Below are positions 123 to 15,224 of a DNA stretch of 15,652 bases, in pieces. The position numbers were made by a program, and so were the translations under genes. Below the pieces are notes generated by a model. That model was not told the DNA's origin. It ran no database searches and saw only the letters and a list, made by a program, of their open reading frames with translations. Origin of the DNA: Tolypothrix carrinoi HA7290-LM1 (GTDB lineage Bacteria; Cyanobacteriota; Cyanobacteriia; Cyanobacteriales; Nostocaceae); the NCBI GenBank assembly GCA_019358935.1, contig JAHHIK010000154.1:1-15652 (forward strand), read 5' to 3'. How positions within the stretch are numbered: position 1 is the stretch's first letter; every line of letters starts with the position of its first letter.

Positions 123-491
123 ATAACGTTTTTGCTGGAGAGTTTGACAAATTGCAATAATTAACTCATCCTCATCTTTGGGTGTTGGTTTTCCCAATTC
201 ATCCAACAACCAACCACCCCAAACCGCAAAAGAATAATTTAGGGAAAATGTCGTCCACAGCACTTGTTCAAAGCCTTGTGCTGCTTCGCACACCTTCGCT
301 ATCAGTGAAGACTTGCCAAAACCCCCTGCTGCCGTCACACCAATTAGGCGAACCTTTTGAGATTGTAGCAATTGTTGTATCTCAGCCAGTTCTTTCTCTC
401 GTCCTTGCCAATGGCTGGTATCAGGCAGAAGCGAGTTAAGAAAAGAACTAAGGGCAGTTGACTTTATCCGTTGCCCTACGGACGACTCCAG
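123..491 (-). pseudogene. N-terminal part of an NB-ARC/STAND NTPase (NLR-like), in frame with the upstream ORF and interrupted by the IS200/IS605 end
   Basis: Frame is open from 491: LESSVGQRIKSTALSSFLNSLLPDTSHWQGREKELAEIQQLLQSQKVRLIGVTAAGGFGKSSLIAKV...LQQKRY. It has the GRExEL motif, a P-loop (AAGGFGKS) and the KRY that normally precedes Walker B (LLVLD), which is replaced by IS sequence. The ORF-track start (TTG 371) lies downstream of the GRE motif. Confidence 0.85.
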
Positions 492-495
492 TCAA
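451..495 (-). other. Predicted RNA pseudoknot 8 nt downstream of the in-frame TGA (candidate readthrough stimulator)
   Basis: TGA(494-492)-CTGGAGTC-GTCCGT(483-478)-AGGGCA(477-472)-ACGGAT(471-466)-AAAGTCAAC-TGCCCT(456-451). Stem 1 is GTCCGT/ACGGAT (one G-U pair); loop AGGGCA is complementary to TGCCCT; TTGACT(495-490) can also pair with AGTCAA(463-458). Confidence 0.6.
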
Positions 496-935
496 TCTTT
501 TGGCGGAGTGCCATAATAGTTATGGGTATCCCCAAACTGATTGGTATTGTTATCACCCATTTTAGTTTGATAACCCTTACCACCGTAAATATTCTGAGTT
601 TGGCTGCTATTATCTTCAACTCGGTTAATATTGATTTCATGAGCGATCGCTCGAATTTCCGCAGCAAATTCGGGATCTTCTTTCATTTCATCTTCTAAAT
701 ATATCGCCAATCGCTGCAAATCTTCCTCGGAACCTTTTTCAACCGCAGCTACAGCACCGATAGCCCTACTATTTCCCCGTAGCTTATCTAATATTTTGTT
801 ACGCAGTTCGTCCATTTTCGTCAGCGCTGTCTCGGTAAATTTTTCACCCAACTTACCCACGCTGGACTCAAAGAACTTTTTGAAGGCGAATTTGGCTATT
901 GCTAGCGCTGTAATGGTGGTTACGGGGTCAACCAT
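492..935 (-). CDS. ~147-aa helical protein with C-terminal amyloid-like motif (Bell-like domain plus BASS/RHIM-like motif), putative NLR-associated effector
   Basis: ATG at 935 preceded by GAGGA. N-terminal hydrophobic/amphipathic helix (MVDPVTTITALAIAKFAFKKFF), charged helical body, and a tail SQTQNIYGGKGYQTKMGDNNTNQFGDTHNYYG rich in N/Q/G/T/Y. Directly upstream of an NB-ARC frame. The CDS is well supported; the family call is less certain. Confidence 0.75.
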   Translation of the reverse strand: MVDPVTTITALAIAKFAFKKFFESSVGKLGEKFTETALTKMDELRNKILDKLRGNSRAIGAVAAVEKGSEEDLQRLAIYLEDEMKEDPEFAAEIRAIAHEININRVEDNSSQTQNIYGGKGYQTKMGDNNTNQFGDTHNYYGTPPKD

Positions 936-1407: not shown

Positions 1408-2250
1408 CTAATAAACTAAAGTTTGAACAGGTGGGTGTATTTTGCAATAAGTTAACTCTCCAGCACTCCAAGAATCGTATTTTTGGGAAGATATAGCTTT
1501 GAAGAAAACCTCTTCGCATTCCTTTCCATGAAGTTCAATAGCAATGTAGTTAACTTTGTTTAACCATTCCTGGTAATTACACGAAAAAACTGACAATTCT
1601 GCTTTTTCAATATCAACTTTGAGAATATCAACTTTATCAATCTTAAACTGTTCAAATACACTCTGGATGTCTATAGCATTCAAGTCCGGAGTTTCTCCTT
1701 CTTTGCAAGGTCTTACTTCAATCCCCCACTCTCCATTATCTTGTAATGGTCTATCAACAACCAATCCAACTTTACTAGACCAAACAGCTGATTTGAGCAG
1801 ATTGGCACGTTTGCCGTAAGGAGCAAGATTTAGAGAGCAAAGCTCAAAGTTATCAGGATCGGGTTCAATAACAATGATACGAGCTTGGGGATATTTGTTC
1901 AAGAAATAGACAGCAGAATAACCTACATTGGCTCCACAGTCAACAATCCAGTTGACATTCTCAATGTTTCCCACTCCAGAATACTCTTCCTCAATAAAAA
2001 TCTGATTAAATACCCAACTATCACTCGTTCCATAGCGACAATAAACTGGATATTGAAGCGTTTTTACAGATAAATGAAGTTTCTTACCTTTGATGTTAAT
2101 TCCCAGTCGAGAAAGAAAGGGGTAAAACAAAGATTTTAATTTGTAGGTAATTGCTTGCCAAATTCCTATCTTTTCACATGCTTTGAAAAAGAATTCACCT
2201 AATGATTTACTTTTAATCTGCTGAGTTTTTGGCTGTTCAATTGGGTTCAT
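1408..2250 (-). CDS. FkbM-family SAM-dependent methyltransferase
   Basis: 280 aa with IVDCGANVG, IEPDPDNF, ILKVDIEKAE and IAIELH motifs; AAGGA upstream of the ATG. Confidence 0.92.
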   Translation of the reverse strand: MNPIEQPKTQQIKSKSLGEFFFKACEKIGIWQAITYKLKSLFYPFLSRLGINIKGKKLHLSVKTLQYPVYCRYGTSDSWVFNQIFIEEEYSGVGNIENVNWIVDCGANVGYSAVYFLNKYPQARIIVIEPDPDNFELCSLNLAPYGKRANLLKSAVWSSKVGLVVDRPLQDNGEWGIEVRPCKEGETPDLNAIDIQSVFEQFKIDKVDILKVDIEKAELSVFSCNYQEWLNKVNYIAIELHGKECEEVFFKAISSQKYDSWSAGELTYCKIHPPVQTLVY

Positions 2251-2272
2251 ATATTTCCTTAAATTCTGGATA

Positions 2273-2322
2273 TTTAAACGCAGAGTAATACAGAGGTAAG
2301 CGCTGAGGTACGCAAAGTTTTT
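2273..2322. repeat. Intergenic short dispersed repeat, copy A
   Basis: 42/50 ungapped identity to 9341-9390; built from ACGC(A/T)GAGGT-like subunits. Confidence 0.8.
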
Positions 2323-2340
2323 ATTTAGTCCTTGGTCTAA

Positions 2341-4500
2341 TTATTTTGCCCAAGGCATTGGTTCAATTGGCTCAAATGAGGTTGTCATTTTATAAGTGCA
2401 ATTTGTTTCTAAAGCGTTATGTATGGCAAGTACAAGTTCGTTGTTGTGCAGAGAAAATTCTGCTGAAAGTCGGGGAGAACGTTGTTGTGCGATCGCTGAT
2501 GCCATTTCTGCTACACCTCGGCAAAAATCCATTTTGTGAGCTCCTCTATATCCCAATCGCGGGGCTTTTTTTGCTAGGGGTAATGATTGCTTCCAAATGC
2601 CTTCCCAGCGCTTGTAACCGATGTTTATACTGCGTCTGATATAAACTTGCGCTCCATAAAACCAAGCGTCATCAATGCCCAGCACGCCTTCATCACCGAT
2701 AATTTTTAATGAGTGGTCATGAGGTGCAATAATACTGCATGTCAGCCTTGCAACTACGCCTGAGGCGAACTTGATGCAAGCTACGGAAAAGTCGGGAGCG
2801 TTAATATCTAATTTGACATCGGTTTCTTTATCTGGTATAATGCATGAGGAAAATGCACTGACGATTTCCGCTGGTCCAAAGAATGCAGTCAGCCAGGTGA
2901 CATAGTAACCTGCATGTTCTAAAGTGCATCCAACTTCAAATTCGTCTTTATAGGGCCAAGGTGTGCCTGATTCATTTAACCATTTGCTGTATGGCATTTT
3001 GTGGACAAGTCCATCGTCCATTTCTGCATAAACAAGTCGAACTTTACCAATTTGATTTTCTCGCAAAGCTTTCCACACGGTTTGTGCTGTTTCGCTCAAC
3101 AAGCTGCATGGTGCGGAAGAAAGATATAAACCGCGCTGTTTAGCTAAGTTGACGAGTTCGTGTGCTTGTGACATCTCCATTGCTAAAGGTTTCTCAGAAT
3201 AAACGTGTTTACCTGCTTCTAAACAAGCTTTGGAAACTGCATAATGGCTGCTAGGATTTGTCAGATTTAAGACGATATCAACTTTTGGGTCTTTGAGAAT
3301 TTCCTCAAGGGAATCATAAATATGGGGAACGTTATAAAAGGCAGCAAATTTAGATGAGCGATCGCTAATTCGATCCATTACTCCCACTAGTTCTAATTGC
3401 GGATGAAGTGGTAATGTTTGCAAATAATAATCTGCAACAAAACCACTACCCACAATCGCAATATATTTCTTCTCTTTTGCGGAAACTGCGGAAGTAAAAT
3501 TATTTGAATTTGCGCTTTTATACTCAACTATAGTGCGCTGTTTATTTAACAACCGAGAAACGTGAAATTTAATTTGACCTTGTAGTTGTGGGAATTTGTC
3601 CAACGCACAAAACACAGAATAGGAAATTGCATCTCTAGATTTATATCCGCGTTGTCGCCAATACCGATACATGCGGTAAATTAACAACGTATAAGCGATT
3701 ATCAATAGTAAAATGCTGAATCCCCAAGTAAACCAAGCGGTAGCGATCGCTAACAAAGGTAAAAGCAAACCCCATAACCAAATACTGCGACTTTCTTTTA
3801 CCCAATGTTTTTCTGGGGTGGAACCGTGTAACCACGCACCTTCAGCATAAGCGTGACCACCACGAAGCGATCGCTTCCACCACTGACTCAAGCGAGTAAT
3901 TTGAGCATCGTGCAATGTCATCTCGGCATCGATCCGCAAAACCTTCCCACCTGCTTGACGCAACCGCACGCACAGTTCTGGCTCTTCACCAGCAATTAAA
4001 GTTGAATTGAACCCCCCAACCTTTTTGAATGCCTCCACGCGCATCATAGCGTCGCCTCCACAAGCTTTCGCCTCACCAACGGGAGTATCCCATTCCATGT
4101 TGCAAAAGCGATTATAAATCGAGTTAGCTGGAAATTCTTCCCGCCGCCGACCACACACTACTACAACGTCAGGATGGGCAATTAATTCATCTACGGCACG
4201 TTTCAACCAGTTTTCAACTACGCGACAGTCCCCATCGACAAATTGAACAAATTCAATGCTTGGTTCAAGTTCTAATAGAGCTGCAAATCCGGCATTTCTC
4301 GCACGAGCGGCAGTAAAGGGAACTGATAAATCAAGCTTGACTACATGGACACCGAAGGATTTTGCTAGCTCGACACTATTATCTGTGGAGCCAGAGTCAA
4401 CATAAACAATTGCTCTACCTTCACCTACTACTGAAAGCAAGCAATTTTTGAGACGATTTCCTTCATTGCGTCCAATAACAACTACTCCAATTTGATGCAT
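2341..4500 (-). CDS. Fusion of a family 2 glycosyltransferase (N-terminal) and a Gfo/Idh/MocA oxidoreductase (C-terminal)
   Basis: 719 aa. GT2 motifs VIGRNEG, YVDSGSTD, FVDGD and GEEPEL, then TM helices and ...IVEYK. After a linker: Rossmann IAIVGSGFVA, NLTNPSSH and HVYSEKPLA. GGAG RBS before ATG 4500. Confidence 0.92.
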   Translation of the reverse strand: MHQIGVVVIGRNEGNRLKNCLLSVVGEGRAIVYVDSGSTDNSVELAKSFGVHVVKLDLSVPFTAARARNAGFAALLELEPSIEFVQFVDGDCRVVENWLKRAVDELIAHPDVVVVCGRRREEFPANSIYNRFCNMEWDTPVGEAKACGGDAMMRVEAFKKVGGFNSTLIAGEEPELCVRLRQAGGKVLRIDAEMTLHDAQITRLSQWWKRSLRGGHAYAEGAWLHGSTPEKHWVKESRSIWLWGLLLPLLAIATAWFTWGFSILLLIIAYTLLIYRMYRYWRQRGYKSRDAISYSVFCALDKFPQLQGQIKFHVSRLLNKQRTIVEYKSANSNNFTSAVSAKEKKYIAIVGSGFVADYYLQTLPLHPQLELVGVMDRISDRSSKFAAFYNVPHIYDSLEEILKDPKVDIVLNLTNPSSHYAVSKACLEAGKHVYSEKPLAMEMSQAHELVNLAKQRGLYLSSAPCSLLSETAQTVWKALRENQIGKVRLVYAEMDDGLVHKMPYSKWLNESGTPWPYKDEFEVGCTLEHAGYYVTWLTAFFGPAEIVSAFSSCIIPDKETDVKLDINAPDFSVACIKFASGVVARLTCSIIAPHDHSLKIIGDEGVLGIDDAWFYGAQVYIRRSINIGYKRWEGIWKQSLPLAKKAPRLGYRGAHKMDFCRGVAEMASAIAQQRSPRLSAEFSLHNNELVLAIHNALETNCTYKMTTSFEPIEPMPWAK

Positions 4501-4543
4501 GTTTATCTCCGTAGCGAATTTAAAAATGTAGAATTAGATTCGG

Positions 4544-5194
4544 TCAGGCAGATGGAAACGGTCGATAAACAGCGTAGGATTTTTCTAATAAGAGCTTTCG
4601 CTCAATGTAAAGGCTGGAATCTGGAAATAGTTCAGTCATCTGCTTTCGAGAAATTACTGTTGTGCCTTTTACCATTTCTGTCCAAACTGGTAACTTTTTC
4701 TCCCAAGAGCGGTGCAGACTTTCGCGCACAGATTGCGGTAAATTCCAGTAGAATAATACACCGCTGTGGGGTTCGAGGGGCCAGCGATCGCTTGGAGTTT
4801 GTACCCAGTAACCTTGACCTAATCGACGCACTTCAGCGGCAAAAGCAGCTTGCTTTTCTTCGTTGCCTACGTGTTCAATTACAGAGTTGCTAAACACAAT
4901 ATCAAAGGATTTATCTGCGAAGGTATTTGATAAATTAGTGGCATCACCTTCAACAAAGGTAAAATCGCCAATTTTCCCGGTAGTTGTATAGGAACCTGGT
5001 AGGTTAACTAAGGTTATATCAAAGTCATGGTCGAACCACTTCCACATATTTGGGAATCCACCCAAGTCAATAATTCTAGCTTTTTTTGGAGGCTTGACCA
5101 GATCCAGAAATTGTTTCATTCGTTCTGTTCGCCAACTTTTACCGAAGGAATTGTCTTTAACCCAAATTGATGCTTTGGCATAAGCTATATGCAT
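4544..5194 (-). CDS. Class I SAM-dependent methyltransferase
   Basis: 216 aa with IIDLGG, VEGDAT and FDIVFSNSVIEHVG motifs; GAGG upstream. Confidence 0.88.
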   Translation of the reverse strand: MHIAYAKASIWVKDNSFGKSWRTERMKQFLDLVKPPKKARIIDLGGFPNMWKWFDHDFDITLVNLPGSYTTTGKIGDFTFVEGDATNLSNTFADKSFDIVFSNSVIEHVGNEEKQAAFAAEVRRLGQGYWVQTPSDRWPLEPHSGVLFYWNLPQSVRESLHRSWEKKLPVWTEMVKGTTVISRKQMTELFPDSSLYIERKLLLEKSYAVYRPFPSA

Positions 5195-5271
5195 TTGAAA
5201 AACCTCTCTTATGTAGATTCAATTGATATTAATAATTTTTGTGGCAGATGAGTTTTGATATTTTTTTGAGA

Positions 5272-5309
5272 ACGAACCGCGACCGACGCAAAGAGCGCAG
5301 AGAGAAGAG
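5272..5309. repeat. Intergenic short repeat element (ACGCAAAG/GCGCAGAG subunits ending GAAGAG)
   Basis: ACGAACCGCGACCGACGCAAAGAGCGCAGAGAGAAGAG; similar to the reverse complement of 10155-10192. Confidence 0.55.
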
Positions 5310-5361
5310 TAAAAGAGAGTTATTACGAATGATTGGTTAGATTGCAGATAATTTATTAGTT

Positions 5362-6600
5362 TTATCCGGAGTTCAATTTTTTATGTGGTTTCTTTGGCAT
5401 TGCTGAGAGAGCAGTAGTGATGTACATGACAAAATAAATGTTAGCTAATCTGCTAAAATAACTTTCCATCATATTATTTAATGTCAAAAATAATAATACA
5501 GCTAGGGGCCAATAGTCTTCGGGATTTTTCGACCCATAAGCAAATTTTAGAGCGCGATTATAAACAAGAATAAAGCTAATTATAAAAAGCGATAAACCGA
5601 TAAGACCGCTATCAAGAATTAAATCAATGTAGCCGTTATGAGCATGAGGTGGAAGATAGCCTTCTGATACTGCTTGACCGGCAGCGATCGCAAACTTACT
5701 ACCCTTTGCCCAAAATGCACCGCGTCCAAATCCCAGCCAAGGTCGCTCTTCTAATTGAGTGAATATAAAATGCCACATGGGTAAACGTCCTGTCAAAGTG
5801 ACATCTTTTCCCAAGCCACTTAAAATAGATACCCAGAAAGTTAAAACTATTGTTGAAATAGATCCAAGAATTAAAATTCCAATATCTAAATAAACTAAGC
5901 TAATTTTTCCTCGCCAACGATAGTTACGATAAAAGTATAAAATAAATATAATAATTAAAGAAATAATTAAAGAAGTTTTGGAATTTGATAGCGGTATCAT
6001 CGATATAGATAGCAAAAATAAACCCCATTTATATAGGCGTTGTTTTTGATTTTCGCACTTGAGTAAATAAAATGCTAAAGAACTTAAAACCATCATACTG
6101 CCAAAAGTATTTTTATAATCATAAATTCCTTTCCATACTCCTGGGTGGTCGTAAATATGCTTGCCTATAGTTGGGTATCGAAAGACAACAAATATACTAA
6201 AAATAACTCCTAAAGCTAAAGTTGTAGCCACAAGTTTTAATTGCTGTTTCACGCTATAACTGGTAGCAAAATATAAGCCAAATGTTAGCATTTGCCATAT
6301 TTCCTGCATATTTTTGAGGGTGAAGTCTGGATACTCAGACCAAACATAGGATGTTAATATTATTAATACCAACATCAAGATAAATACGTCACGAGTGATT
6401 GCGACTAAGGCTTTCTTCCAGCGGACGCAAATTAAAAAGGCGGAAATTGCCCAAACAGAATATCTAATCGCTGTCACAAAAACTACCGGAAGTAAGCCGG
6501 GAGCATCTCCGTTTCTACCAACATCAAAGCCTCTGGTAAAAAAAGTTAAACTTATAATTACAAATATTTGTTCAGCTAGTTCTAAATATTTTCTTTTCAT
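5362..6600 (-). CDS. O-antigen ligase / Wzy-family polysaccharide polymerase
   Basis: Multi-TM protein with WKGIYDYKN, SNSKTS, TLTGRLPMW, PWLGFG and HAHNGYID motifs. ATG at 6600 preferred over TTG at 6609. Confidence 0.9.
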   Translation of the reverse strand: MKRKYLELAEQIFVIISLTFFTRGFDVGRNGDAPGLLPVVFVTAIRYSVWAISAFLICVRWKKALVAITRDVFILMLVLIILTSYVWSEYPDFTLKNMQEIWQMLTFGLYFATSYSVKQQLKLVATTLALGVIFSIFVVFRYPTIGKHIYDHPGVWKGIYDYKNTFGSMMVLSSLAFYLLKCENQKQRLYKWGLFLLSISMIPLSNSKTSLIISLIIIFILYFYRNYRWRGKISLVYLDIGILILGSISTIVLTFWVSILSGLGKDVTLTGRLPMWHFIFTQLEERPWLGFGRGAFWAKGSKFAIAAGQAVSEGYLPPHAHNGYIDLILDSGLIGLSLFIISFILVYNRALKFAYGSKNPEDYWPLAVLLFLTLNNMMESYFSRLANIYFVMYITTALSAMPKKPHKKLNSG

Positions 6601-6641
6601 AATAATCAACTAATAATTTCTGGGACTTGATTAGCCCAAGT

Positions 6642-7949
6642 TTAAATTAATGTTAGATATTGTTTAATTAAGTCACTTCGGTGTGTAAAAACAACTTGTT
6701 CGTCGAACTGCTGACCAGATAATGCAGCCTGAGAAATTAACTCACTCAATTTTGCTCGGTCTAAATTGAGTTGAACCATCAAATAAGCTAGCTTTTGCCA
6801 ATCATTCATCGGCACAAATGCACCACCACCGTATTCTGATACAAGTCCTTCCGGGTAGAGACTGCTGTAACCGACTATCGGACAACCACAAACTAAAGAC
6901 TCAACTAAACATCGAGGTGATTCTGGGGTTTTGTGGCAAAACAGAAAGATATGATGTTTTTTCATCGTCTCTAAAAGTTTGTTTTGGTCATCAACAAATC
7001 CAGCGAAATGGACTTGCTCGGCAATACCCAATTTATCGGCAAGAGATTTCATTTCCAAAAGCAATGGTCCGTCACCAAGCCAAGTGGCTTGGATGTTAAC
7101 GCCAACTTGTACCAGACGATGTACCACTTTTAACCAGTCGAGGGGTCCTTTCATTTCGGCAGCTCGTCCTGCGTAGCAAATCAACAAAGGTTCATTTTGT
7201 AATAGTGAATTTATCTTTTGATTAAGACTGAAAGCATCAATGAGATCGGATTTTTTCGTATGAATGTCGTAAACACAATGAGGATTTTTGCAGAAAGGTG
7301 AATATGCCGAATAGCAGTCCTGTCCTTGAAAAAGTCCTAGGTGGGAACGACTAACTAAGTATTGCTGATAGGGTTTGAGAAACAAAAGACTGAAAAAATC
7401 TTGGAAGCGACGCTTGAGTGATGTTTTGTTATTTTTGTTGAATGTTCTTAGCATGACTTCGTATTCAACGCGATCTGCCCAGATAGAATAAGGTCGTTTG
7501 AGTTTGATGGCTTCCAGACAAGCGATCGCTCCCCAATCTCCAATAATTCCGCAAATGGCAAAACAAAGATATTCACACTCTTGGATCTTTGCAGTCAGTA
7601 GTTGAGATATGCTCTTGAAAGTTTGAATGAAGTCTGGCAATTTGTAAGCATAAGGCAGGGGAACTAATTCTAGTCGATCTGCACAAGGCAAATCGGCGAT
7701 CGCTTTCCATGTCGTTGAAGTCTGAGTTTTTTCGGTTATGTGTTCTGGCATCAAAGGACAAGCCATAACAACGCGATCAAAATTTTCTGCCCAACGAATC
7801 AAACCGTCGCAGGTTTGCTCATCAAATCCTAGGCGTCCTTTTACTTTCACAAACGGGACAGGCATTACTAATAAAATTTTCTTTTCGATTGCAGAAGTTT
7901 TATTAGTAAAAATTTTATTGTTAGGTTCAACTCTAAGTTTTTCAATCAT
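6642..7949 (-). CDS. GT-B fold glycosyltransferase (family 4-like)
   Basis: 435 aa with YAGRAAEMKG, WLGDGPL, VHFAGFV and ESPRCLVESLVCGCPIV motifs. Confidence 0.88.
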   Translation of the reverse strand: MIEKLRVEPNNKIFTNKTSAIEKKILLVMPVPFVKVKGRLGFDEQTCDGLIRWAENFDRVVMACPLMPEHITEKTQTSTTWKAIADLPCADRLELVPLPYAYKLPDFIQTFKSISQLLTAKIQECEYLCFAICGIIGDWGAIACLEAIKLKRPYSIWADRVEYEVMLRTFNKNNKTSLKRRFQDFFSLLFLKPYQQYLVSRSHLGLFQGQDCYSAYSPFCKNPHCVYDIHTKKSDLIDAFSLNQKINSLLQNEPLLICYAGRAAEMKGPLDWLKVVHRLVQVGVNIQATWLGDGPLLLEMKSLADKLGIAEQVHFAGFVDDQNKLLETMKKHHIFLFCHKTPESPRCLVESLVCGCPIVGYSSLYPEGLVSEYGGGAFVPMNDWQKLAYLMVQLNLDRAKLSELISQAALSGQQFDEQVVFTHRSDLIKQYLTLI

Positions 7950-7984
7950 GACTGCCAGTTCATCTTTACTAAAATCTGATTTCG

Positions 7985-9274
7985 CTAGATTGAGGTATTT
8001 GTAATTAGCGACTTGAATTTTCTGTTAGTTTTTAAATTTGACACAGTACAAGTCTGTTGATAAATCTCTAGAATGCGGTCGATTTTGCGTTCCCAGTCAA
8101 AATGCTGACGGACGCGCTCTTGTCCAGCACGACCCATTTGCGATCGCAACTCTGGATAATGTGCAAGTTTCAGCATGGCATCTGTGAATCCATTAATTAA
8201 TGCTTCGGTGGAAGTCGGTTCAATTAAAATCCCACAGGTTGCATCCAAATAATCCGCTGGACCACCCCATTTAGTTGCAATTACTGGTAATCCCATTGCC
8301 ATTGCTTCTAAAACCACTGCTCCGCCACACTCCAACAAACTCGGCAGAACTAGCGCCGATGCTTGTTCTAGCCTGATAGCGCACTCTTTTTGAGACAGCC
8401 AGCCAAAAAATTTCACTCGCTCCCCCAAGCCTAAATTCACAGCTTGAGCTTCTAATTCTTGCCGCAAATTCCCATCGCCGATAATTTCCAAACAAGCATC
8501 TGTTTCGGCGGCAACACCTTGAAAGGCTTCTATCAGTAATTCTACGGCTTTCCAGTCTACTAGCCGACCAATAAACACAAACTTCGCAGCCTCTGATGGT
8601 ATCTTTTCGGCTGCGAGGAGTTGCCACACGGACAAATCCACGCCGTTTTCTACCAATTCGATAACAGTGCCACTTATCCCTGAAGGTAGTGCTTGTTTTG
8701 TGCGTTCATTGGCAACTAGCAAAGTCTGTGCCTGAAGTTTACCGGGCATCACACGATTCCAGATATCTGCCAGTTGTCGCCCCAGTGAAATCGTTAATTT
8801 GGCGCTTTTGCTCTCGCGATCGCGAAAGGCGGGAGGGTATTCTATATCACCATTCATCGGACCGATGACAACCGGTGCGCCGACACCGTACATCAGCGAA
8901 GGAAATTTGGGGGAAACTGGTATCGGTTCATGCACTACATCTATGTTGTGTTGTAGCACCAGTTTCCGAACTATCGAGCGTTGGATGTTTTGCGTATACA
9001 GATGACTGATTAACCCTGTTGTCATCACTGCTACCCGTGAGGGCAAAAACTGCCCGAAACGCCAGAGAAACTTATGTATCCAGGTATCGCTGACAAAGTA
9101 CATGCGATCGCATTCTTTTGGCAAAAGTGATTGTAGTTCAGCTTGGGTGCGACCGTGAACTACTAACCACGCTTCGATGTTGCGATCGCGTAGTAACCTG
9201 AAGTAGTTTAGCGGCAGAAACGCCTCACCACCAAATTGACTGGAAGCGTGTTCAGCAACAATCACAACTCGCAT
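7985..9274 (-). CDS. Family 4 glycosyltransferase
   Basis: 429 aa with FIGRLVDWKA, IIGDG and LPSLLECGGAVVLEAMAMGLPVI (E-x7-E) motifs. Confidence 0.93.
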   Translation of the reverse strand: MRVVIVAEHASSQFGGEAFLPLNYFRLLRDRNIEAWLVVHGRTQAELQSLLPKECDRMYFVSDTWIHKFLWRFGQFLPSRVAVMTTGLISHLYTQNIQRSIVRKLVLQHNIDVVHEPIPVSPKFPSLMYGVGAPVVIGPMNGDIEYPPAFRDRESKSAKLTISLGRQLADIWNRVMPGKLQAQTLLVANERTKQALPSGISGTVIELVENGVDLSVWQLLAAEKIPSEAAKFVFIGRLVDWKAVELLIEAFQGVAAETDACLEIIGDGNLRQELEAQAVNLGLGERVKFFGWLSQKECAIRLEQASALVLPSLLECGGAVVLEAMAMGLPVIATKWGGPADYLDATCGILIEPTSTEALINGFTDAMLKLAHYPELRSQMGRAGQERVRQHFDWERKIDRILEIYQQTCTVSNLKTNRKFKSLITNTSI

Positions 9275-9340
9275 CTTGAGGTTCCTTGTAAAACGGTAGG
9301 TGCAATCGAGTAGTTAATCAGCTTTGCGTAAAAGCGCATT

Positions 9341-9390
9341 TTTAAACGCAAAGGTACGCTGAGGTACGCGCTGAGGTACGCAGAGTTTTT
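9341..9390. repeat. Intergenic short dispersed repeat, copy B
   Basis: TTTAAACGCAAAGGTACGCTGAGGTACGCGCTGAGGTACGCAGAGTTTTT; 42/50 identity to 2273-2322. Confidence 0.8.
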
Positions 9391-9416
9391 CCGCATTTTA
9401 ATGTACAATTTGATAC

Positions 9417-10121
9417 TTATATTTTCTTTTGCATAACCACAATAAAATCTGTAAGTTCAGCATCAACCTTGCCAAAAGTCAATGCTTTGACAACTGGTGA
9501 CATCATTTTCCATCCTCTATCGATTAGCCAATGACGCGATCGCAGTTTTTTCTGTCTGGGATTTTCATAAACATGCAAGCGTTCTATTGACAAATCATTT
9601 TCCGCTGCAAATTGCCTGATAGCTTCTGGTGAAATCGAAAACCGCAAATATGTTTTAAAAGGTAAACGGTCATCAACTCCCGCTAGCTTTTCTCCAAAAA
9701 TATATTTATAAAACCAAACATGAAAAGCATGGGGTGTAAACTTTGTCACCAATCCTTTCAAAGACATGACATTGGGAATTGCCACAATCATAATACCATC
9801 TTTCTTCAATGCTTTACGGCAATTATCAAGGACTTTTTCCGGATTGGAAAGATGTTCTAAAACCCACCAACAAACAATCAAATCAAACTCAGACTCTGGC
9901 AAATCATAACTTTCTACATCCGCCAAAATCTTTTCATTTAAAACCTCGTTTCTATCAAGTTGCTTTTGTGAGATATCAAGCCCAACTATATAAGAATTTG
10001 CCGGAATTTCAATATGAGAACAAGAGCCACAGCCAATTTCCAACACCTTAAAAGGTTGACGCTGCCAAATTAACTTCTCAACAACTGATTGCAACTTCGG
10101 GTCTTCTTCGAGTACTACCAT
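9417..10121 (-). CDS. Class I SAM-dependent methyltransferase
   Basis: 234 aa with VLEIGCGS, GLDIS and FDLIVCWWVLEHL motifs; AAGGAG RBS. Confidence 0.92.
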   Translation of the reverse strand: MVVLEEDPKLQSVVEKLIWQRQPFKVLEIGCGSCSHIEIPANSYIVGLDISQKQLDRNEVLNEKILADVESYDLPESEFDLIVCWWVLEHLSNPEKVLDNCRKALKKDGIMIVAIPNVMSLKGLVTKFTPHAFHVWFYKYIFGEKLAGVDDRLPFKTYLRFSISPEAIRQFAAENDLSIERLHVYENPRQKKLRSRHWLIDRGWKMMSPVVKALTFGKVDAELTDFIVVMQKKI

Positions 10122-10154
10122 GTAATCTCTCCTTAATTAAATTATGCAAAATTG

Positions 10155-10192
10155 CTCTTCTTCTTTGCGTCTTAGCGTCTTTGCGTGAGAAA
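10155..10192. repeat. Intergenic short repeat element
   Basis: Minus strand reads TTTCTCACGCAAAGACGCTAAGACGCAAAGAAGAAGAG, three ACGC(A/T)AAG 8-mers in tandem. Confidence 0.65.
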
Positions 10193-10197
10193 ACCCT

Positions 10198-11421
10198 TTA
10201 TCCAACAGGTTTATTAATTTCCCGCTCAGTACGCACCCAACTGCTTTGAGGTTGAACCAAAAACTTCAGATAAAGCGGAATCTTCCAAAAAATGTAAAAA
10301 GGAATAGTTAATAATTCCCCCAAAGGCAAATCTTGACTACCAAACTTCACCCAAGCTGTAAAAATTGCTGTTAGCAGAAACAACCCGGCTGTAGCTAACA
10401 AAATCGCTGGCATCCACAAAGCCGCCAAGACTCCAAACAGCAGTGAACTCGTCATCAGCGCCAACCAAATAACCACAAGTAAAGATAAAGGTGGCAGGGA
10501 CATATCTAAAGCGCTCATCAACAAATCTAATCTTTGTTGATGTATTGCTGCTTTAAATAACAAGGGTACATAAGTTAGTAAAGTTTGTAAATGTCCGTGT
10601 TCCCAACGAGTTCTTTGACTGGTAACAGCACGCTTTTGCTGGGGAAAATTCCCGGTAATATTTGCTTGTGGACAGAAAATTGGTGGGTGTCCAGCTATGG
10701 TCAAATCCAAGCTTAGTTTCATATCTTCAACGATGTAACCATTGGCTAAATCAACCGAACGAATGACAGACCAAGGAAAAGCCATTCCTGTACCGGTTAA
10801 TAAACAAGGTAGTTTCAATTGAGTTAATCCACGCAGACGAACTAAATTTTTCACCTTGAAAGCAAATACTGAGATTGATTCTTTAGGGCTAGAATTAGTG
10901 GGTTTTGCCATCAAATAGGTAGCTTGCACGGGTCTTTTTGTGGCGATCGCACTCTGAGTTAAAGAAGCGATCGCACCAATATGAACTCTACAGTCAGCAT
11001 CAACAAACACAACGACATCTGGTGGATCGCAAGAAAGAAACCGCAAGCCATAATCAAGAGCGTATCCCTTACCGCGCAGCATCAAATCGTGACGCTCGAT
11101 GACTGTAGCACCCGCAGCAGATGCAATTTCCGCCGTGCGATCGCTGCAATTGTCAGCAATTACTATTAAGCGATGTTCGTTTTTTAATTGTGATTTGATG
11201 TCTAGTAGTGTCGAACCAATGACCAATTCTTCATTGTGTGCTGGAACTAACACCGCAACTTTAGGATTTTGACTTCCATTCGCAACACAAGCAAGTGGAA
11301 ACAAAGCCGCGATACATTCCCCCAGCAAAACTAAGCTGAGAATTACCAACCCTAATGCACTAATTAACAAAACAGCATCAACGAATAAAACCGCAAACTG
11401 GTTAATTGACATTTGTTGCAT
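10198..11421 (-). CDS. Membrane-bound family 2 glycosyltransferase with QxxRW motif
   Basis: 407 aa with N-terminal TM, VPAHNEE, ADNCSD, GKGYAL, FVDAD, VED and QRTRW motifs, plus C-terminal TMs. Confidence 0.93.
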   Translation of the reverse strand: MQQMSINQFAVLFVDAVLLISALGLVILSLVLLGECIAALFPLACVANGSQNPKVAVLVPAHNEELVIGSTLLDIKSQLKNEHRLIVIADNCSDRTAEIASAAGATVIERHDLMLRGKGYALDYGLRFLSCDPPDVVVFVDADCRVHIGAIASLTQSAIATKRPVQATYLMAKPTNSSPKESISVFAFKVKNLVRLRGLTQLKLPCLLTGTGMAFPWSVIRSVDLANGYIVEDMKLSLDLTIAGHPPIFCPQANITGNFPQQKRAVTSQRTRWEHGHLQTLLTYVPLLFKAAIHQQRLDLLMSALDMSLPPLSLLVVIWLALMTSSLLFGVLAALWMPAILLATAGLFLLTAIFTAWVKFGSQDLPLGELLTIPFYIFWKIPLYLKFLVQPQSSWVRTEREINKPVG

Positions 11422-11448
11422 CCTAAATTGGTTACTTAGTCAAGCTGT

Positions 11449-12051
11449 TTATAGCTGACTGAGTTCACCGATATCAAATTTGTGATGATTGTCAGAATTA
11501 ATGATTTTTGCCGGAATACCAACTGCTGTTGCTCTTGCCGGAACATTACTTAAAACTACAGCATTCGCACCAATATTTACATCATCTCCAACAGTGATGT
11601 CACCAAAAATTTTTGCACCAGCACCAACATTGACACGTTTACCTAACTTTGGTGCATCAAGCGGACGATTTAAATAACGATTACCTAAAGTAACACCTTG
11701 GCGAATAATACTTTCATCGCCAATTGAAGCGTATCCATGAATTACAATTCCTCCTTGGTGTTCAATAATTACGCGACGACCAAGTTGGACAGTAAACGGT
11801 AGCTCAATTCCATAGGTATTGCGAACTTTCCGAAATAACATTTTATATAAAATGCTGAACGGTGCCCGCACAAATTTGGATTTAATTTTCATTGTCCAAA
11901 CACCAAAACGGTGAACTGCTACTGCGCGAAATCCTGGTTTAGTCCAATCTCGTCCATGAGCAATCCAGTCTTCTTTCACAAGCTGCCAAAGACTTAAAGT
12001 AAAAAGTTCCGCCTCGCTTGCAGTTGCTCTCCCAAAGGGTAATGCACTCAT
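11449..12051 (-). CDS. Hexapeptide-repeat O-acetyltransferase (serine-acetyltransferase-like / WcaB-like)
   Basis: 200 aa with GIELP, IEHQGGIVI, IRQGVTLG, VGAGAKI, IGANAVV and VGIPAK left-handed beta-helix motifs; located within the EPS cluster. Confidence 0.88.
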   Translation of the reverse strand: MSALPFGRATASEAELFTLSLWQLVKEDWIAHGRDWTKPGFRAVAVHRFGVWTMKIKSKFVRAPFSILYKMLFRKVRNTYGIELPFTVQLGRRVIIEHQGGIVIHGYASIGDESIIRQGVTLGNRYLNRPLDAPKLGKRVNVGAGAKIFGDITVGDDVNIGANAVVLSNVPARATAVGIPAKIINSDNHHKFDIGELSQL

Positions 12052-12114
12052 CGCTCTTGTTCCTATTTCAGTTTTTTATGAATAAGCTCGCGAGTTTTTT
12101 CAACTTCTCACTAA

Positions 12115-14301
12115 TTAAGGTATCGACGCAGTATCTACTTTTTCCACACCGTTTTCTGAGCGGTAGCTATTGTAGTAAAAATAGTTATCAGGCTCGTGCT
12201 TCACATTAACCGCATTGGCAACAATTCCTAAGATATTAGCTTCAGAACGTGCCAGTAAAGATTTAGCAGCAGTAGCAGTATTTGAATCAACAACGCCCGG
12301 TCTAACGACAATTAAAACTCCGTCTACCATGTTGCCTAAAACTGCTGCATCGGCAGTTCCCACAAGGGGCGGAGTGTCAAAAATTACGTAATCGTAACTT
12401 TGAGATAACATGTCTATAAAGGATGTCATGCGTTCTGAATCAATTAACGCTAAGGGATTGGGAGGCATGACTCCAGCAGTTAGTACAGATAAATTGCTTG
12501 TTATTCTTTGTACTGATTTTGAAAATTCATTTTCTCCAACCATGACATTACTTAAACCGACTGAGTTTATTAAACCCCAGAGGTGATGTTGGGAGGGCTG
12601 ACGCATATCTGCATCAACTAACAAAACTCGTCGTCCAGCTAAAGACATTACCGCAGCTAAATTAGCAGCAACTTCTGTTTTTCCCTCCCCAGAAATAGAA
12701 CTCGTGACTACAATTGCAGAAACTTTTCTATCTAAGCTAATAAATTTCAGATTTGCTTGCAGCATTTGGTATGCTTCGTGAATTACAGTACGCGGAGAAG
12801 TCGCCACAATAATTCGCTCTGAAACTTTTTCTAAGCTTCTATCTAGAGGAGTAGATGTATTATTATTTTCAATTTTAGGAATTAGCCCTAACAAGGTATA
12901 GCCAAAAAGCGCTTCAGCTTCTTTAGTTGTCTTCAATCTTCTATCAATTAAGTCAACAAAAAAGGCAGATGCTACGCCCAAAAGTAAACCAACAAATCCG
13001 CTACCTAATGTGATTACAAATGTCTTTCTTTTTACTGCTGCACTGGGGGCAACTTTAGCATATTCGACTACTTTAGCATTGCCTACAGTTTGATTTTCTG
13101 CTACTTGAATTTCTTGTTGTCTTGTCAAAAGGTTTTCGTAACTTTTTTGGGCAATTGATAGTCCTCGTTCTAAATCTCCTTCTTGTTTTTCTAAATTTGG
13201 CATCACCTCGGCTCTTCTTTTATAAGAAGCTATAACCGCAGATAAAGCTTCTACTTTTTTTTCTAAACCTAAGCGTTGTGACTGTAATCTGACAAAATCT
13301 GATGTTAAGTTTTGCTTGATTTCCCCCATTTGCAATTTCCCAGGAGCAATCGCAGCTTTATATCCTAAAGATTGAGATATTTGCTGTTGCAATAAAGAAT
13401 TTATATTTGCTTCTTGACTTTCGAGATCGACGATGGCTGGATGTGTTTCTGTATAACGAGCTTTCAAAGCTGCTAGTTGAGTTTCTACCTTTTGCAGTTC
13501 AGCTAAAAGTCCCTGCACACCAGGTATTTGACTTAATGAAGTGATATCCACCGCTTGATCTACAGGTAAATTCATTTGACGGCGTATTTGTATTTCCTGA
13601 GCACTTGCATCCGCTAATTCCGAACGAGCTTTGGCTAATTCATTCTCGGCATCACTGATATTTTTCACTGATGCTCTTGTTTCTTCTGCAAGTTCGAGAA
13701 TTTGATTTTTTAGCTTAAATTCTCGCAAAGCTTCTGCTGCTTTCTCTAATTGTGCTTTAGCTCGTGGCAATTCTTTTTCAATGAATGCACCGGCGGAGAT
13801 AGCTTGAGTTCGATTACTAAGAATGTTATTGGCAATGTAAGATTTCATCACCTGATCGACTATTGCTTTAGCCGATTCCGGATTGTCAGATGTGTAAGAA
13901 ACTTTCAGGACATCAGTACCGACAACTGCTTCCGTCTTGATAGAAATTGCATCTGGACTCAAAGGATTGCCCTTTTTATCTTTTAAATTGAGGGTTTTGA
14001 TCACGTCTAGGATGACCGGCTCAGACTGCATTACTATCGCTTGCGTGTCTAAAGGATTAGCCTCACGTTTGACGGATTCAAGATGCCCTATTTTTTCGCC
14101 TACTCCCGTCAGTGATGAAGTTTGGTTGGATTGGAAAAGAAGTTTTCCACTTCCTTCGTAAACGGGTGGTTGCATAACGAAATTAATTCCACCAAGGGTA
14201 GCAAAAACTGCAAACACTCCTGAAGCTATCAGCCAGCGACGTTTGAGAACTAGCAAATATTTTTGAACATCTATCTCTTCAGGATAGTTTTTTGTCTCCA
14301 T
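12115..14301 (-). CDS. wzc: Polysaccharide co-polymerase / tyrosine autokinase (Wzc/GumC family)
   Basis: 728 aa: two TMs flanking a coiled-coil region (YTETHP), Walker A SGEGKT, A' VDADMRQP, B IFDTPP, and a C-terminal Tyr cluster NYFYYNSY. Confidence 0.95.
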   Translation of the reverse strand: METKNYPEEIDVQKYLLVLKRRWLIASGVFAVFATLGGINFVMQPPVYEGSGKLLFQSNQTSSLTGVGEKIGHLESVKREANPLDTQAIVMQSEPVILDVIKTLNLKDKKGNPLSPDAISIKTEAVVGTDVLKVSYTSDNPESAKAIVDQVMKSYIANNILSNRTQAISAGAFIEKELPRAKAQLEKAAEALREFKLKNQILELAEETRASVKNISDAENELAKARSELADASAQEIQIRRQMNLPVDQAVDITSLSQIPGVQGLLAELQKVETQLAALKARYTETHPAIVDLESQEANINSLLQQQISQSLGYKAAIAPGKLQMGEIKQNLTSDFVRLQSQRLGLEKKVEALSAVIASYKRRAEVMPNLEKQEGDLERGLSIAQKSYENLLTRQQEIQVAENQTVGNAKVVEYAKVAPSAAVKRKTFVITLGSGFVGLLLGVASAFFVDLIDRRLKTTKEAEALFGYTLLGLIPKIENNNTSTPLDRSLEKVSERIIVATSPRTVIHEAYQMLQANLKFISLDRKVSAIVVTSSISGEGKTEVAANLAAVMSLAGRRVLLVDADMRQPSQHHLWGLINSVGLSNVMVGENEFSKSVQRITSNLSVLTAGVMPPNPLALIDSERMTSFIDMLSQSYDYVIFDTPPLVGTADAAVLGNMVDGVLIVVRPGVVDSNTATAAKSLLARSEANILGIVANAVNVKHEPDNYFYYNSYRSENGVEKVDTASIP

Positions 14302-14408
14302 ACAAATTTCTTACTTGTAGATGAATGCGTGGTTGGAGTATCAATGAAATTGTCATGTGAATACTTTGAGTAAAAACTTGGATCAACTTTTATTGAAACT
14401 AAAAGTTT

Positions 14409-15224
14409 TTACATTTTTTTACTCTTTATCAAAGATGCGAGGTTACTACCCTTATGTCTCTTAACTGCTGACCAAGGATTTTCATAAAGCTGAAATCTTT
14501 GCTTCACAATTAGCCACAAAAATGGAATAGCATCCAACAGATACCTCTTCCAGAGTCGCTGAGGTTCGCTTAACAGCCGATAAAGCCACTCTAGACCAAC
14601 TTCACTCATCCACTTTGGCGATCGCTTGATATTACCTGCCTCAAAACCGATAGTTGCACCAATCGCCAAAAATACTTTCACATTCTTCAATTGCTTTCTA
14701 TACCTAGCAATCCACATTTCTTGTTTGGGTGCGCCTACACCAATTGCTAAAACTGTAGCATCTGAAAAGTTAATCAGATTAACAATCTCTTGACACTCCT
14801 CTTCATTTTTCTCAAATCCAAAGGACGGCGAGTGCGCCGCAACTATAATATCTCTACCTACCTTTGAATTAATTTTTTGTTGAGCTATCTTAACTACATC
14901 TGCCTCAGCGCCCAGCAAAAATATTTTGATTTTGTCATCATGCTGGTAATAATTGTAAAACGCTGGAAACAAATCTGAACCCGAAATTTTCTCCTGTATT
15001 GGTGTTCTCAAAAAACTCGATATATACATCAAAACTTTACTATCGCAAACTCTATAATCTGCCTCTTGGTAAACAAGATAAAAGTCTTGATTTTTCTGCA
15101 ATTTCATCACATGATCTACGTTTGGGGTAAACACAACACCACCGATTCGCAGATTTTCTAGCAATTCGACCATTGTGATGTTGTTGATGGTCACATTTAG
15201 TAAGTTAACCTGTCTCATCATCAC
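14409..15224 (-). CDS. WecB/TagA/CpsF-family glycosyltransferase
   Basis: FTPNVDH, ISGSDL, FLLGA, GVGAPKQE and GLEWLYRLLSEPQRLWKRY motifs. Start could be GTG 15224 or ATG 15221/15218. Confidence 0.95.
   Translation of the reverse strand: MMMRQVNLLNVTINNITMVELLENLRIGGVVFTPNVDHVMKLQKNQDFYLVYQEADYRVCDSKVLMYISSFLRTPIQEKISGSDLFPAFYNYYQHDDKIKIFLLGAEADVVKIAQQKINSKVGRDIIVAAHSPSFGFEKNEEECQEIVNLINFSDATVLAIGVGAPKQEMWIARYRKQLKNVKVFLAIGATIGFEAGNIKRSPKWMSEVGLEWLYRLLSEPQRLWKRYLLDAIPFLWLIVKQRFQLYENPWSAVKRHKGSNLASLIKSKKM

Follow-up and report, generated by a model that had tools for sequence, protein, structure and literature searches.

Among bacterial amyloid-signaling systems, the closest described relatives of the locus reported here are the pairs formed by a Bell-domain effector with a BASS motif and a NOD-like receptor (NLR). 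According to the main text of the preprint describing these pairs, the Bell domain is about 120 to 140 amino acids (aa) long, starts with a hydrophobic helix, bears an acidic amino acid in second or third place and is built as a five-helix bundle (10.1101/2020.01.06.895854). The locus that we analyzed lies at one end of a 15,652-nucleotide (nt) contig of Tolypothrix carrinoi HA7290-LM1 (JAHHIK010000154.1, assembly GCA_019358935.1), the whole of which is called the window below. It resembles the described pairs in its short helical effector (about 120 to 150 aa in those pairs) with a C-terminal Q/N/G-rich motif, in its collinear neighboring NB-ARC/TPR gene and in its filamentous cyanobacterial host, and the two-gene relatives of its family carry the paired motif. 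It differs from them in that its family has one motif copy, not two, and a receptor without a start codon, which always lies in frame behind TGA-CTN and a predicted pseudoknot. Since the method of Dyrka et al. (2020) required the motif on both genes, it would miss such single-motif loci; the main text of that preprint (10.1101/2020.01.06.895854) makes no mention of stop codons, of readthrough or of in-frame arrangements, and neither does the main text of another BASS paper. Full-text literature searches turned up no account of recoding at NLR or BASS loci. The TGA-CTN junction with its pseudoknot looks like a programmed readthrough signal, conserved and apparently undescribed. Programmed stop-codon readthrough is a textbook viral strategy. 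To our knowledge, it is hardly documented for cellular bacterial genes, and we know of no bacterial readthrough case with a dedicated 3' pseudoknot.

In the window, the effector open reading frame (ORF) occupies positions 495 to 935 of the minus strand. It comprises 147 codons, from an ATG at 935-933 to a TGA at 494-492, and ends in ...YYGTPPKD; a Shine-Dalgarno (SD)-like GAGGA at 948-944 lies 8 nt 5' of the ATG. The proposed recoding site (489 to 494, minus strand) consists of this TGA and of CTG at 491-489, that is, UGA-C in a UGA-CUN context. Past the TGA, the same frame reads LESSVGQRIKSTALSSFLNSLLPDTSHWQGREKEL...GVTAAGGFGKS and remains open until a stop at 83-81, inside a repeat. Its nonrepeated part (127 to 491, minus strand) includes a linker (491-411), the segment WQGREKEL (410-387) and the P-loop GVTAAGGFGKS (341-309), and is truncated at 127. 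When compared with Pfam NB-ARC, the post-stop frame scored 24.7 to 25.5 bits, just above the cut-off of 23.5, and the adjacent collinear NLR is thus represented in the window by an NB-ARC fragment (25.5 versus 23.5 bits). A preliminary description, made from the sequence of the window, had proposed that the 147-aa ORF and an NB-ARC domain share one frame split by the TGA, and the ORF, the translation and the Pfam match agreed on this point. The same description had noted a gap free of start codons, the early closure of the two alternative frames and the lack of a second motif. Indeed, ATG, GTG or TTG occurs in 0 of the 27 codons from the TGA to WQGRE, the alternative frames close at TAG 478-476 and TAG 450-448, and no second copy of the C-terminal effector motif precedes the NB-ARC domain. 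All of its statements about the sequence are correct. A promoter and terminator scan of positions 100 to 1450 gave signals at the level of shuffled sequences only.

We next examined the effector itself. No Pfam or NCBIfam family matched it, and neither collection holds a Bell profile. An AlphaFold2 model, with a predicted local distance difference test score (pLDDT) of 66, contained helices at residues 10-22, 29-32, 35-52, 56-66, 70-86 and 88-103, within a helical Bell-like domain formed by residues 1 to 105 (positions 935-621); residues 107 to 142 were disordered (pLDDT <50). The N terminus, MVD, has an acidic residue at position 3 and leads into a hydrophobic first helix, and relatives start with MEP, MTDP or MDP. 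A Foldseek search of the model against the PDB gave no match at an E value of ≤0.001. These features fit the description of the Bell domain and make the effector a candidate for it. The C-terminal amyloid-signaling-type motif, NIYGGKGYQTKMGDNNTNQFGDTHNYYG, covers residues 115 to 142 (positions 510 to 593, minus strand) and is the sole copy in the locus, so that the motif pair expected at the effector C terminus and the NLR N terminus is incomplete here. As aligned, the tail motif GKGYQTKMGDNNTNQFGDTHNY matched the N-terminal NLR motif (GTGYQTETGANNTNFFGGEHHH) of a two-gene relative, L027, in which effector and NLR each bear a copy; the score was 73, and reversed controls reached 35 at most.

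The same genome contains other effector-related loci. L012 (G000:C2:127142-130372) is a textbook two-gene paralogue, whose effector ends in ...NENWQGINIKGGNNTINKPNLDFRSK-TAA and whose NB-ARC gene lies in a different frame and has, at its start, an ATG of its own and a copy of the motif, MTNNENWQGVNIKGGSVNIHNPNINFG. Two further loci are relics. L011 (G000:C175:1-1836) is a 69-aa N-terminal effector fragment beside toxin-antitoxin-like genes. L180 (G000:C69:31847-34896; site C69:33347-33396) has an effector-like ORF followed by TGA CTA, a degraded pseudoknot and a stop 11 codons further on.

To see how widespread the arrangement is, homologous loci were surveyed. A first search with the readthrough translation against 61 related genomes gave about 24 loci in which a single frame, interrupted by one TGA and no more, matched both the effector and NB-ARC, the open frames being 739 to 1070 aa long. 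An effector-only profile (A1) was searched against 401 cyanobacterial genomes (E ≤1e-8), and homologues were found in 82 of them. Downstream DNA was taken for the 30 loci returned and for the first 100 of a further 120 matches in the list; the remaining 20 on that list and 30 outside it did not enter the survey. The 170 profile matches minus 8 exact duplicates made 162 nonredundant effector ORFs, none dropped for running off its stretch, which were classified by script with a Walker-A pattern for receptor detection. In 65 of these, a receptor without a second motif is open directly from the stop in the frame of the effector (63 TGA, 2 TAG and 0 TAA). Nine others have a receptor, again without a second motif, in the -1 frame overlapping the effector end, and all 9 use TAA (0 TGA, 0 TAG). 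The classic two-gene arrangement, with a start codon and a second motif on the receptor, was found 43 times (4 TGA, 8 TAG and 31 TAA). Nine loci were of other kinds and 36 had no downstream Walker-A pattern; the window was sorted among the latter because its P-loop, GGFGKS, misses the pattern, and it was placed in the same-frame class by hand. With it, this class comprises 66 loci in 41 genomes, 23 genera and 14 families. Local scores for a second motif were 14 to 30 in the TGA same-frame loci, 39 in one TAG locus and 41 to 148 in the two-gene relatives.

The post-stop frames are mostly long: 45 of 65 run without a stop to the edge of the DNA retrieved (median, 495 aa), another 13 measure 312 to 1212 aa, and 7 are short (96 to 127 aa), like that of the window. 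The preliminary description had asked whether homologous loci have a stop in frame just behind the motif or a sense codon instead. The stop is kept throughout the same-frame class, and 0 of the 162 effector ORFs are joined to a downstream domain through a sense codon, with no more than 56 aa extending past the profile in any of them. A search for longer, fused homologues in a collection of 5.8 billion proteins gave none at E ≤1e-5, which is weak evidence. A conserved in-frame stop followed by an open second ORF under coding constraint, as expected for readthrough, is thus found in 65 loci besides the window.

The context of the stop is also conserved. In the 65 same-frame loci, the next codon is CTA in 40, CTG in 17 and CTC in 3, making CTN in 60. 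The genome carrying the window has 2519 ORFs of 300 aa or more, and 487 of them end in TGA; 11% of those have C at +4, and TGA-CTN occurs in 10 of the 487, so that the TGA-CTG of the window is far above chance. Both a leaky stop (63 of 65 TGA) and a leaky context (60 of 65 CTN) are therefore present in this class. UGA-C is a weak termination context in bacteria, from which a reduced effect of release factor 2 (RF2) would be expected at these junctions. The preliminary description had left room for CTG 491 as a re-initiation start, and this did not hold up: 43 of the 65 loci have CTA or CTC at that place, the post-stop codon is thus a conserved leucine codon and not a CTG start, and CTG 491-489 was ruled out as a start. 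A TTG overlapping the stop (TTGA) was ruled out as well, being in the wrong frame.

Immediately behind this context, an H-type pseudoknot is predicted at positions 452 to 483 of the minus strand, with stem 1 formed by 483-479 (GUCCG) and 470-466 (CGGAU) and stem 2 by 476-472 (GGGCA) and 456-452 (UGCCC). The junction alignment has the consensus TGA CTA CAG TCG YCN GAA NGG GAA CNG RYA AAG TYA AAT CCC. Stem 1 has five pairs and begins after the first 8 nt past the TGA (+12 from the U); 98.2% of its alignment cells are paired, and two of its pairs covary (CG25/UA17/GC1/UG1 and CG18/UG9/GC7/UA7). In stem 2, loop nucleotides GGGA pair with UCCC 10 nt downstream; it is less variable, yet double changes are present, one of them in the window itself, where GGGC pairs with GCCC and a C-G pair stands in place of the G-C of most rows. 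For the pseudoknot alignment overall, 89.1% of the cells are paired versus 21 to 51% when the partners are slid by 1 to 3 columns, the covariation score is 0.336 versus 0.03 to 0.10, and 0 of 500 shuffles reached the observed values. Over all 66 same-frame junctions, 85.1% of the cells are paired. A script for the pseudoknot pattern found it in 55 of the 66 junctions, where dinucleotide shuffles gave a mean of 4.4 and a maximum of 10, and in 4 of the 43 two-gene loci, which is the shuffle level. A covariance model (R1) recovered the window at an E value of 9e-9 together with one decayed relic in the same genome; in five relatives it returned mainly junctions already listed, plus a few extra matches. 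Rfam had no family at the junction, and its two matches elsewhere were at chance level. An RNA element about 8 nt 3' of the stop, as expected of a readthrough stimulator, is therefore present, and a stimulatory role is predicted for it.

The same nucleotides are also translated if the stop is read through, and diversity was compared by codon position. It was 0.17/0.14/0.25 in the linker and 0.15/0.07/0.39 in NB-ARC, the ordinary periodicity of coding sequence. Over the pseudoknot codons it was 0.20/0.21/0.15, and the low third-position value indicates an RNA constraint laid on coding sequence. The pseudoknot codons, and the linker with its coding periodicity, lie 5' of any conserved start. Most of the structure is held by about 10 codons, L-Q-S-S-E-R-E-R-T-K, without a counterpart in the two-gene receptors, which share only the NP..IP segment after this stretch.

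A few junctions depart from the common form. In eight loci (L144, L151, L155, L152, L085, L088, L092 and L140), effector-TGA-CTN (or CCA) is followed in frame by a partner that is not an NLR: a predicted transmembrane stretch that leads into a PPC domain (L144 and L155), a PsbP-like domain (L152) or sequence of no known type. The pseudoknot is kept in only some of these eight, and the readthrough cassette may serve other receptors too. As for the two same-frame TAG loci, L158 (TAG CTA CAG TCG GCG G...CCG CC) keeps stem 1 with a swapped G-C/C-G pair, and L089 probably has its own ATG two codons past the stop.

The sister loci of the -1 class point to the same product by another route. In all 9, a heptamer of the form X_XXY_YYZ abuts the TAA (A_AAA_AAG in 4 and C_CCA_AAG in 5), the site expected for programmed -1 frameshifting, of which the window has none. 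Their receptor frame is open from 7 to 43 nt before the stop, with no ATG and no second motif. The two heptamers interchange at the same alignment position within one subfamily, purine-rich SD-like runs lie 10 to 17 nt 5' of the heptamer, and a stem is predicted 3' of it, the prediction drawing on only 6 related sequences. Since frameshifting yields only a fusion, the family evidently needs an effector-receptor fusion, and the heptamer loci would thus lend independent support to a fusion product in the readthrough class.

The window copy itself has decayed. Positions 1 to 126 recur with 100% identity at 13 more contig ends, spread over 12 other contigs of this assembly, so that 14 contig ends share these 126 bp; because of this recurrence, the NB-ARC frame is taken to be cut at 126/127 by the end of a multicopy element. 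This end has 77% identity over 95 nt to a site beside a 413-aa ORF on another contig (C92) with OrfB_IS605 and Cas12f1-like TNB domains (TnpB). The interrupting insertion sequence (IS) is probably related to IS200/IS605 elements and akin to the left end of a TnpB element, a kinship drawn from the 77% match of the ends, the inserted body being outside the assembly. The window post-stop frame has 54% identity over 123 residues to the NB-ARC and TPR protein of L013, the closest intact receptor relative (NB-ARC, E = 2e-14; TPR_12, E = 5e-39). When this receptor was searched by tblastn against the window assembly, which is 99.65% complete, the rest of the window NLR was not found, and the only matches were other NLRs at 24 to 28% identity and TPR repeats. 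The window locus is, judging from these comparisons, an IS-truncated relic of a widespread cyanobacterial family, with its TGA, context and predicted pseudoknot intact and its NLR cut after 121 post-stop codons. Because of the truncation, only free effector, or at most a truncated readthrough product, would be made here.

The conserved stop, context, frame and RNA structure make it probable, in our judgment, that the family uses programmed recoding to produce an effector-receptor fusion, which supports the leaky termination suggested in the preliminary description. From these signals, and from the lack of a start codon, a second motif and selenocysteine machinery, we infer the following course of readthrough and signaling. 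One mRNA would encode a small Bell-like helical effector, presumably membrane attacking, with a C-terminal amyloid-signaling motif and, in frame behind the UGA, an NB-ARC/TPR NLR-like receptor without its own start codon or motif. Most ribosomes would stop at the UGA and release abundant free effector (147 aa in the window). In a minority of ribosomes, a near-cognate tRNA, probably tRNA-Trp, would read the UGA, an event favored by the weak UGA-C(UN) context and by the H-type pseudoknot, which lies 8 nt on and would be positioned at the mRNA entrance of the ribosome. In intact relatives, the rare product would run to about 1000 aa and join effector, motif, linker and NLR. By analogy with fungal NWD2/HET-S and bacterial BASS systems, NLRs that oligomerize in response to a ligand would bring their tethered motifs together and seed the amyloid fold; the pool of free effector would be templated by this fold, and cell death would follow. 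In this scheme, recoding would take the place of a second motif copy and determine the effector-to-receptor ratio. In the sister loci, the same fusion would arise by -1 frameshifting at A_AAA_AAG or C_CCA_AAG directly before the TAA.

Other explanations were weighed against these results. The UGA could simply terminate, with the NLR made as a separate protein by termination-reinitiation or from a weak or noncanonical internal start and the pseudoknot coupling or attenuating its translation so that its level stays low; no fusion would then exist. Structures at gene junctions often regulate translational coupling, RNA depth falls past the junction of one same-frame locus, L128, and an in-frame ATG, GTG or TTG precedes the NB-ARC core in 41 of the 65 same-frame loci. 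However, 24 of the 65 have none of these codons before the core, the TTG and GTG candidates vary synonymously and are thus not conserved as starts, and the 43 loci with CTA or CTC after the stop exclude a shared CTG start. The expectation that homologues would lack an NLR start codon therefore stood for 24 loci and not for the other 41, where at least one unconserved candidate exists. A separate NLR would also lack a motif for addressing the effector, whereas no two-gene relative is without one; fusions are all that the sister loci with slippery heptamers can make; and neither the exclusive same-frame arrangement nor the choice of TGA would be explained. We therefore consider separate synthesis of the NLR unlikely. 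A further alternative is that the RNA element has another role, such as RNase cleavage, small-RNA targeting or transcription attenuation, and that the NLR frames are expressed by some other route or are silent recombination cassettes. The drop in RNA depth past the junction would suit it, as would the effector tree, in which the locus classes are intermixed and well-supported branches force a minimum of 9 changes for the readthrough class and of 2 for the frameshift class, which points to frequent cassette exchange. Against it, the long NLR frames stay open with coding periodicity, and the element sits at a fixed 8 nt from the stop and is specific to the same-frame TGA class; this explanation appears very unlikely.

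The preliminary description had itself offered a plainer possibility, namely, that the TGA is a nonsense mutation in a gene already disrupted by the IS; the gene would then have been a fused Bell-NLR gene in decay. The part about the IS stood: the NLR of the window is destroyed by an insertion at 126/127, the remainder was not found in the assembly by tblastn, and 7 of the 65 relatives likewise have short post-stop frames of 96 to 127 aa. The part about the TGA did not, since 63 further loci, mostly with long intact downstream frames, have the same TGA, none of the 162 homologues has a sense codon there, and both context and pseudoknot have been kept, with compensatory changes. A nonsense mutation is thus refuted by the conservation of the TGA and the covariation of the pseudoknot, and we give it hardly any credence. 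Bacterial selenoprotein genes have a hairpin shortly past an in-frame UGA, and the UGA could in principle encode selenocysteine with the downstream structure as a bacterial selenocysteine insertion sequence. The genome has no SelA match, however; its best match to the SelB model is a 414-aa EF-Tu-like frame with 188 bits versus a cut-off of 242; Aragorn found neither a tRNA-Sec nor any tRNA with a UCA anticodon in this 99.65%-complete genome; and SelB, the only component searched there, was likewise not found in 5 relatives carrying such loci. The UGA also lies in a variable linker and not in a redox motif. The missing machinery rules selenocysteine out, and its probability is close to nil.

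Several observations weigh against programmed readthrough or limit its support. Readthrough is predicted here from the comparison of sequences. Peptides of three same-frame loci of one genome (G112) were matched in 0 files of a Nostoc proteogenomics supplement (PMC8557916), a search that was uninformative because the control peptide was absent too. The pseudoknot pattern is missing in 11 of the 66 junctions, and the recoding system is broken in the window itself. Walker-A detection left 36 of the 162 loci unassigned, and the window joined the same-frame class by hand; the counts overstate independence, since the loci are kin to one another and the search for them set out from the window; and the effector tree is poorly resolved. 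Internal initiation is possible in the 41 loci with an in-frame ATG, GTG or TTG, which is ATG in 8 of them. RNA reads from a strain 95 to 99% like L128 span its TGA without a letter change and indicate cotranscription at best; the depth over the junction goes from about 45 to 12 to 4 (run X24), which also fits an attenuator or a processing site. In the same locus (L128:529-726), RNA depth is about tenfold lower in the receptor than in the effector ORF, and seven molecules start or stop at position 594, 13 nt 5' of the TGA.

When everything is taken together, we regard the following joint reading as probable. The family would be an NLR-type immune or cell-death system expressed by programmed recoding, mostly by readthrough at UGA-CUN with a compact pseudoknot at +12, a stimulator convergent with that of retroviral gag-pol and the first of its kind in cellular bacterial genes, and by -1 frameshifting in the sister loci. 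One and the same amyloid motif would nucleate when carried by the receptor in the rare fusion and respond when carried by the effector in its abundant short form, and recoding efficiency would set, and could regulate, the trigger threshold. The cassette also precedes non-NLR partners (transmembrane proteins with PPC or PsbP-like domains).

Some features near the locus or elsewhere in the genome are recorded here in their own right. A tandem array (1062-1259; 21-bp unit, 9.4 copies, 88% matches) sits between the effector gene and an upstream FkbM-type methyltransferase gene. Positions 1408 to 15224 of the minus strand hold an exopolysaccharide or O-antigen-type gene cluster, with WecG/TagA, Wzz-GNVR-tyrosine-kinase-like, hexapeptide transferase, several GT2 and GT4, Wzy_C ligase/polymerase and methyltransferase genes. 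According to Aragorn, a run of at least 12 tRNA genes (G000:C183:6890-7661) includes a second, very divergent tRNA-Trp(CCA), for which a Hirsh-type suppressor role was considered, and a tRNA with a four-base anticodon (aaag), and a CUA-anticodon tRNA at G000:C91:28540-28613 is labeled Pyl.

If the joint reading is true, a natural bacterial readthrough stimulator would become open to genetic dissection, and the setting of an effector-to-receptor ratio at the level of translation would become directly testable. It would explain how single-motif Bell/NLR loci, invisible to paired-motif searches, can signal, and it would imply that many cyanobacterial annotations miscall such receptors as start-less genes or pseudogenes. 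It would also extend a gag-pol-like interchange of readthrough and frameshifting to prokaryotic immunity.

Outside bacterial immunity, the closest counterpart is the gag-pol junction of Moloney murine leukemia virus (MoMLV), where a UAG is followed by an 8-nt spacer and an H-type pseudoknot from +12 (PMC13517186). The window family shares with it the layout, in which a stop in frame separates the abundant short product from the rare, long fusion, as well as the 8-nt spacer and the pseudoknot position. It differs in being made of bacterial chromosomal genes, with UGA instead of UAG and RF2 instead of eRF1, and in the size of the predicted pseudoknot (5 plus 4 bp in about 32 nt versus 50 nt); readthrough itself is a prediction on our side of the comparison. 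As in gammaretroviruses, relatives appear to reach the same fusion by -1 frameshifting, and the retroviral interchange of the two mechanisms has been discussed (PMC5009743). The stop context corresponds to type II readthrough in the Beier and Grimm classes, UGA-CUA or UGA-CGG (PMC13517186), since UGA-CUA occurs in 40 and UGA-CUG in 17 of the 65 loci; that type was defined for eukaryotic ribosomes and viruses, and a corresponding effect on bacterial RF2 would be an extrapolation. A bacterial precedent is the Qbeta coat/A1 junction, whose UGA is read through at 3 to 5% in Escherichia coli, and a reporter in Bacillus subtilis gave 1 to 6% (PMC13517186). There, too, a small abundant protein gains a rare, longer form when a bacterial ribosome reads a UGA; the context is UGA-ACU, however, no downstream structure is tabulated in that source, and the gene is a phage gene, not a cellular one. 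Finally, the sister loci resemble dnaX (PMC3711429) in their A_AAA_AAG or C_CCA_AAG heptamers, upstream SD-like runs and predicted downstream stem. Their stimulators are putative (n = 6), and their frameshift product would be the long one, as in IS elements and retroviruses, whereas that of dnaX is the shorter.

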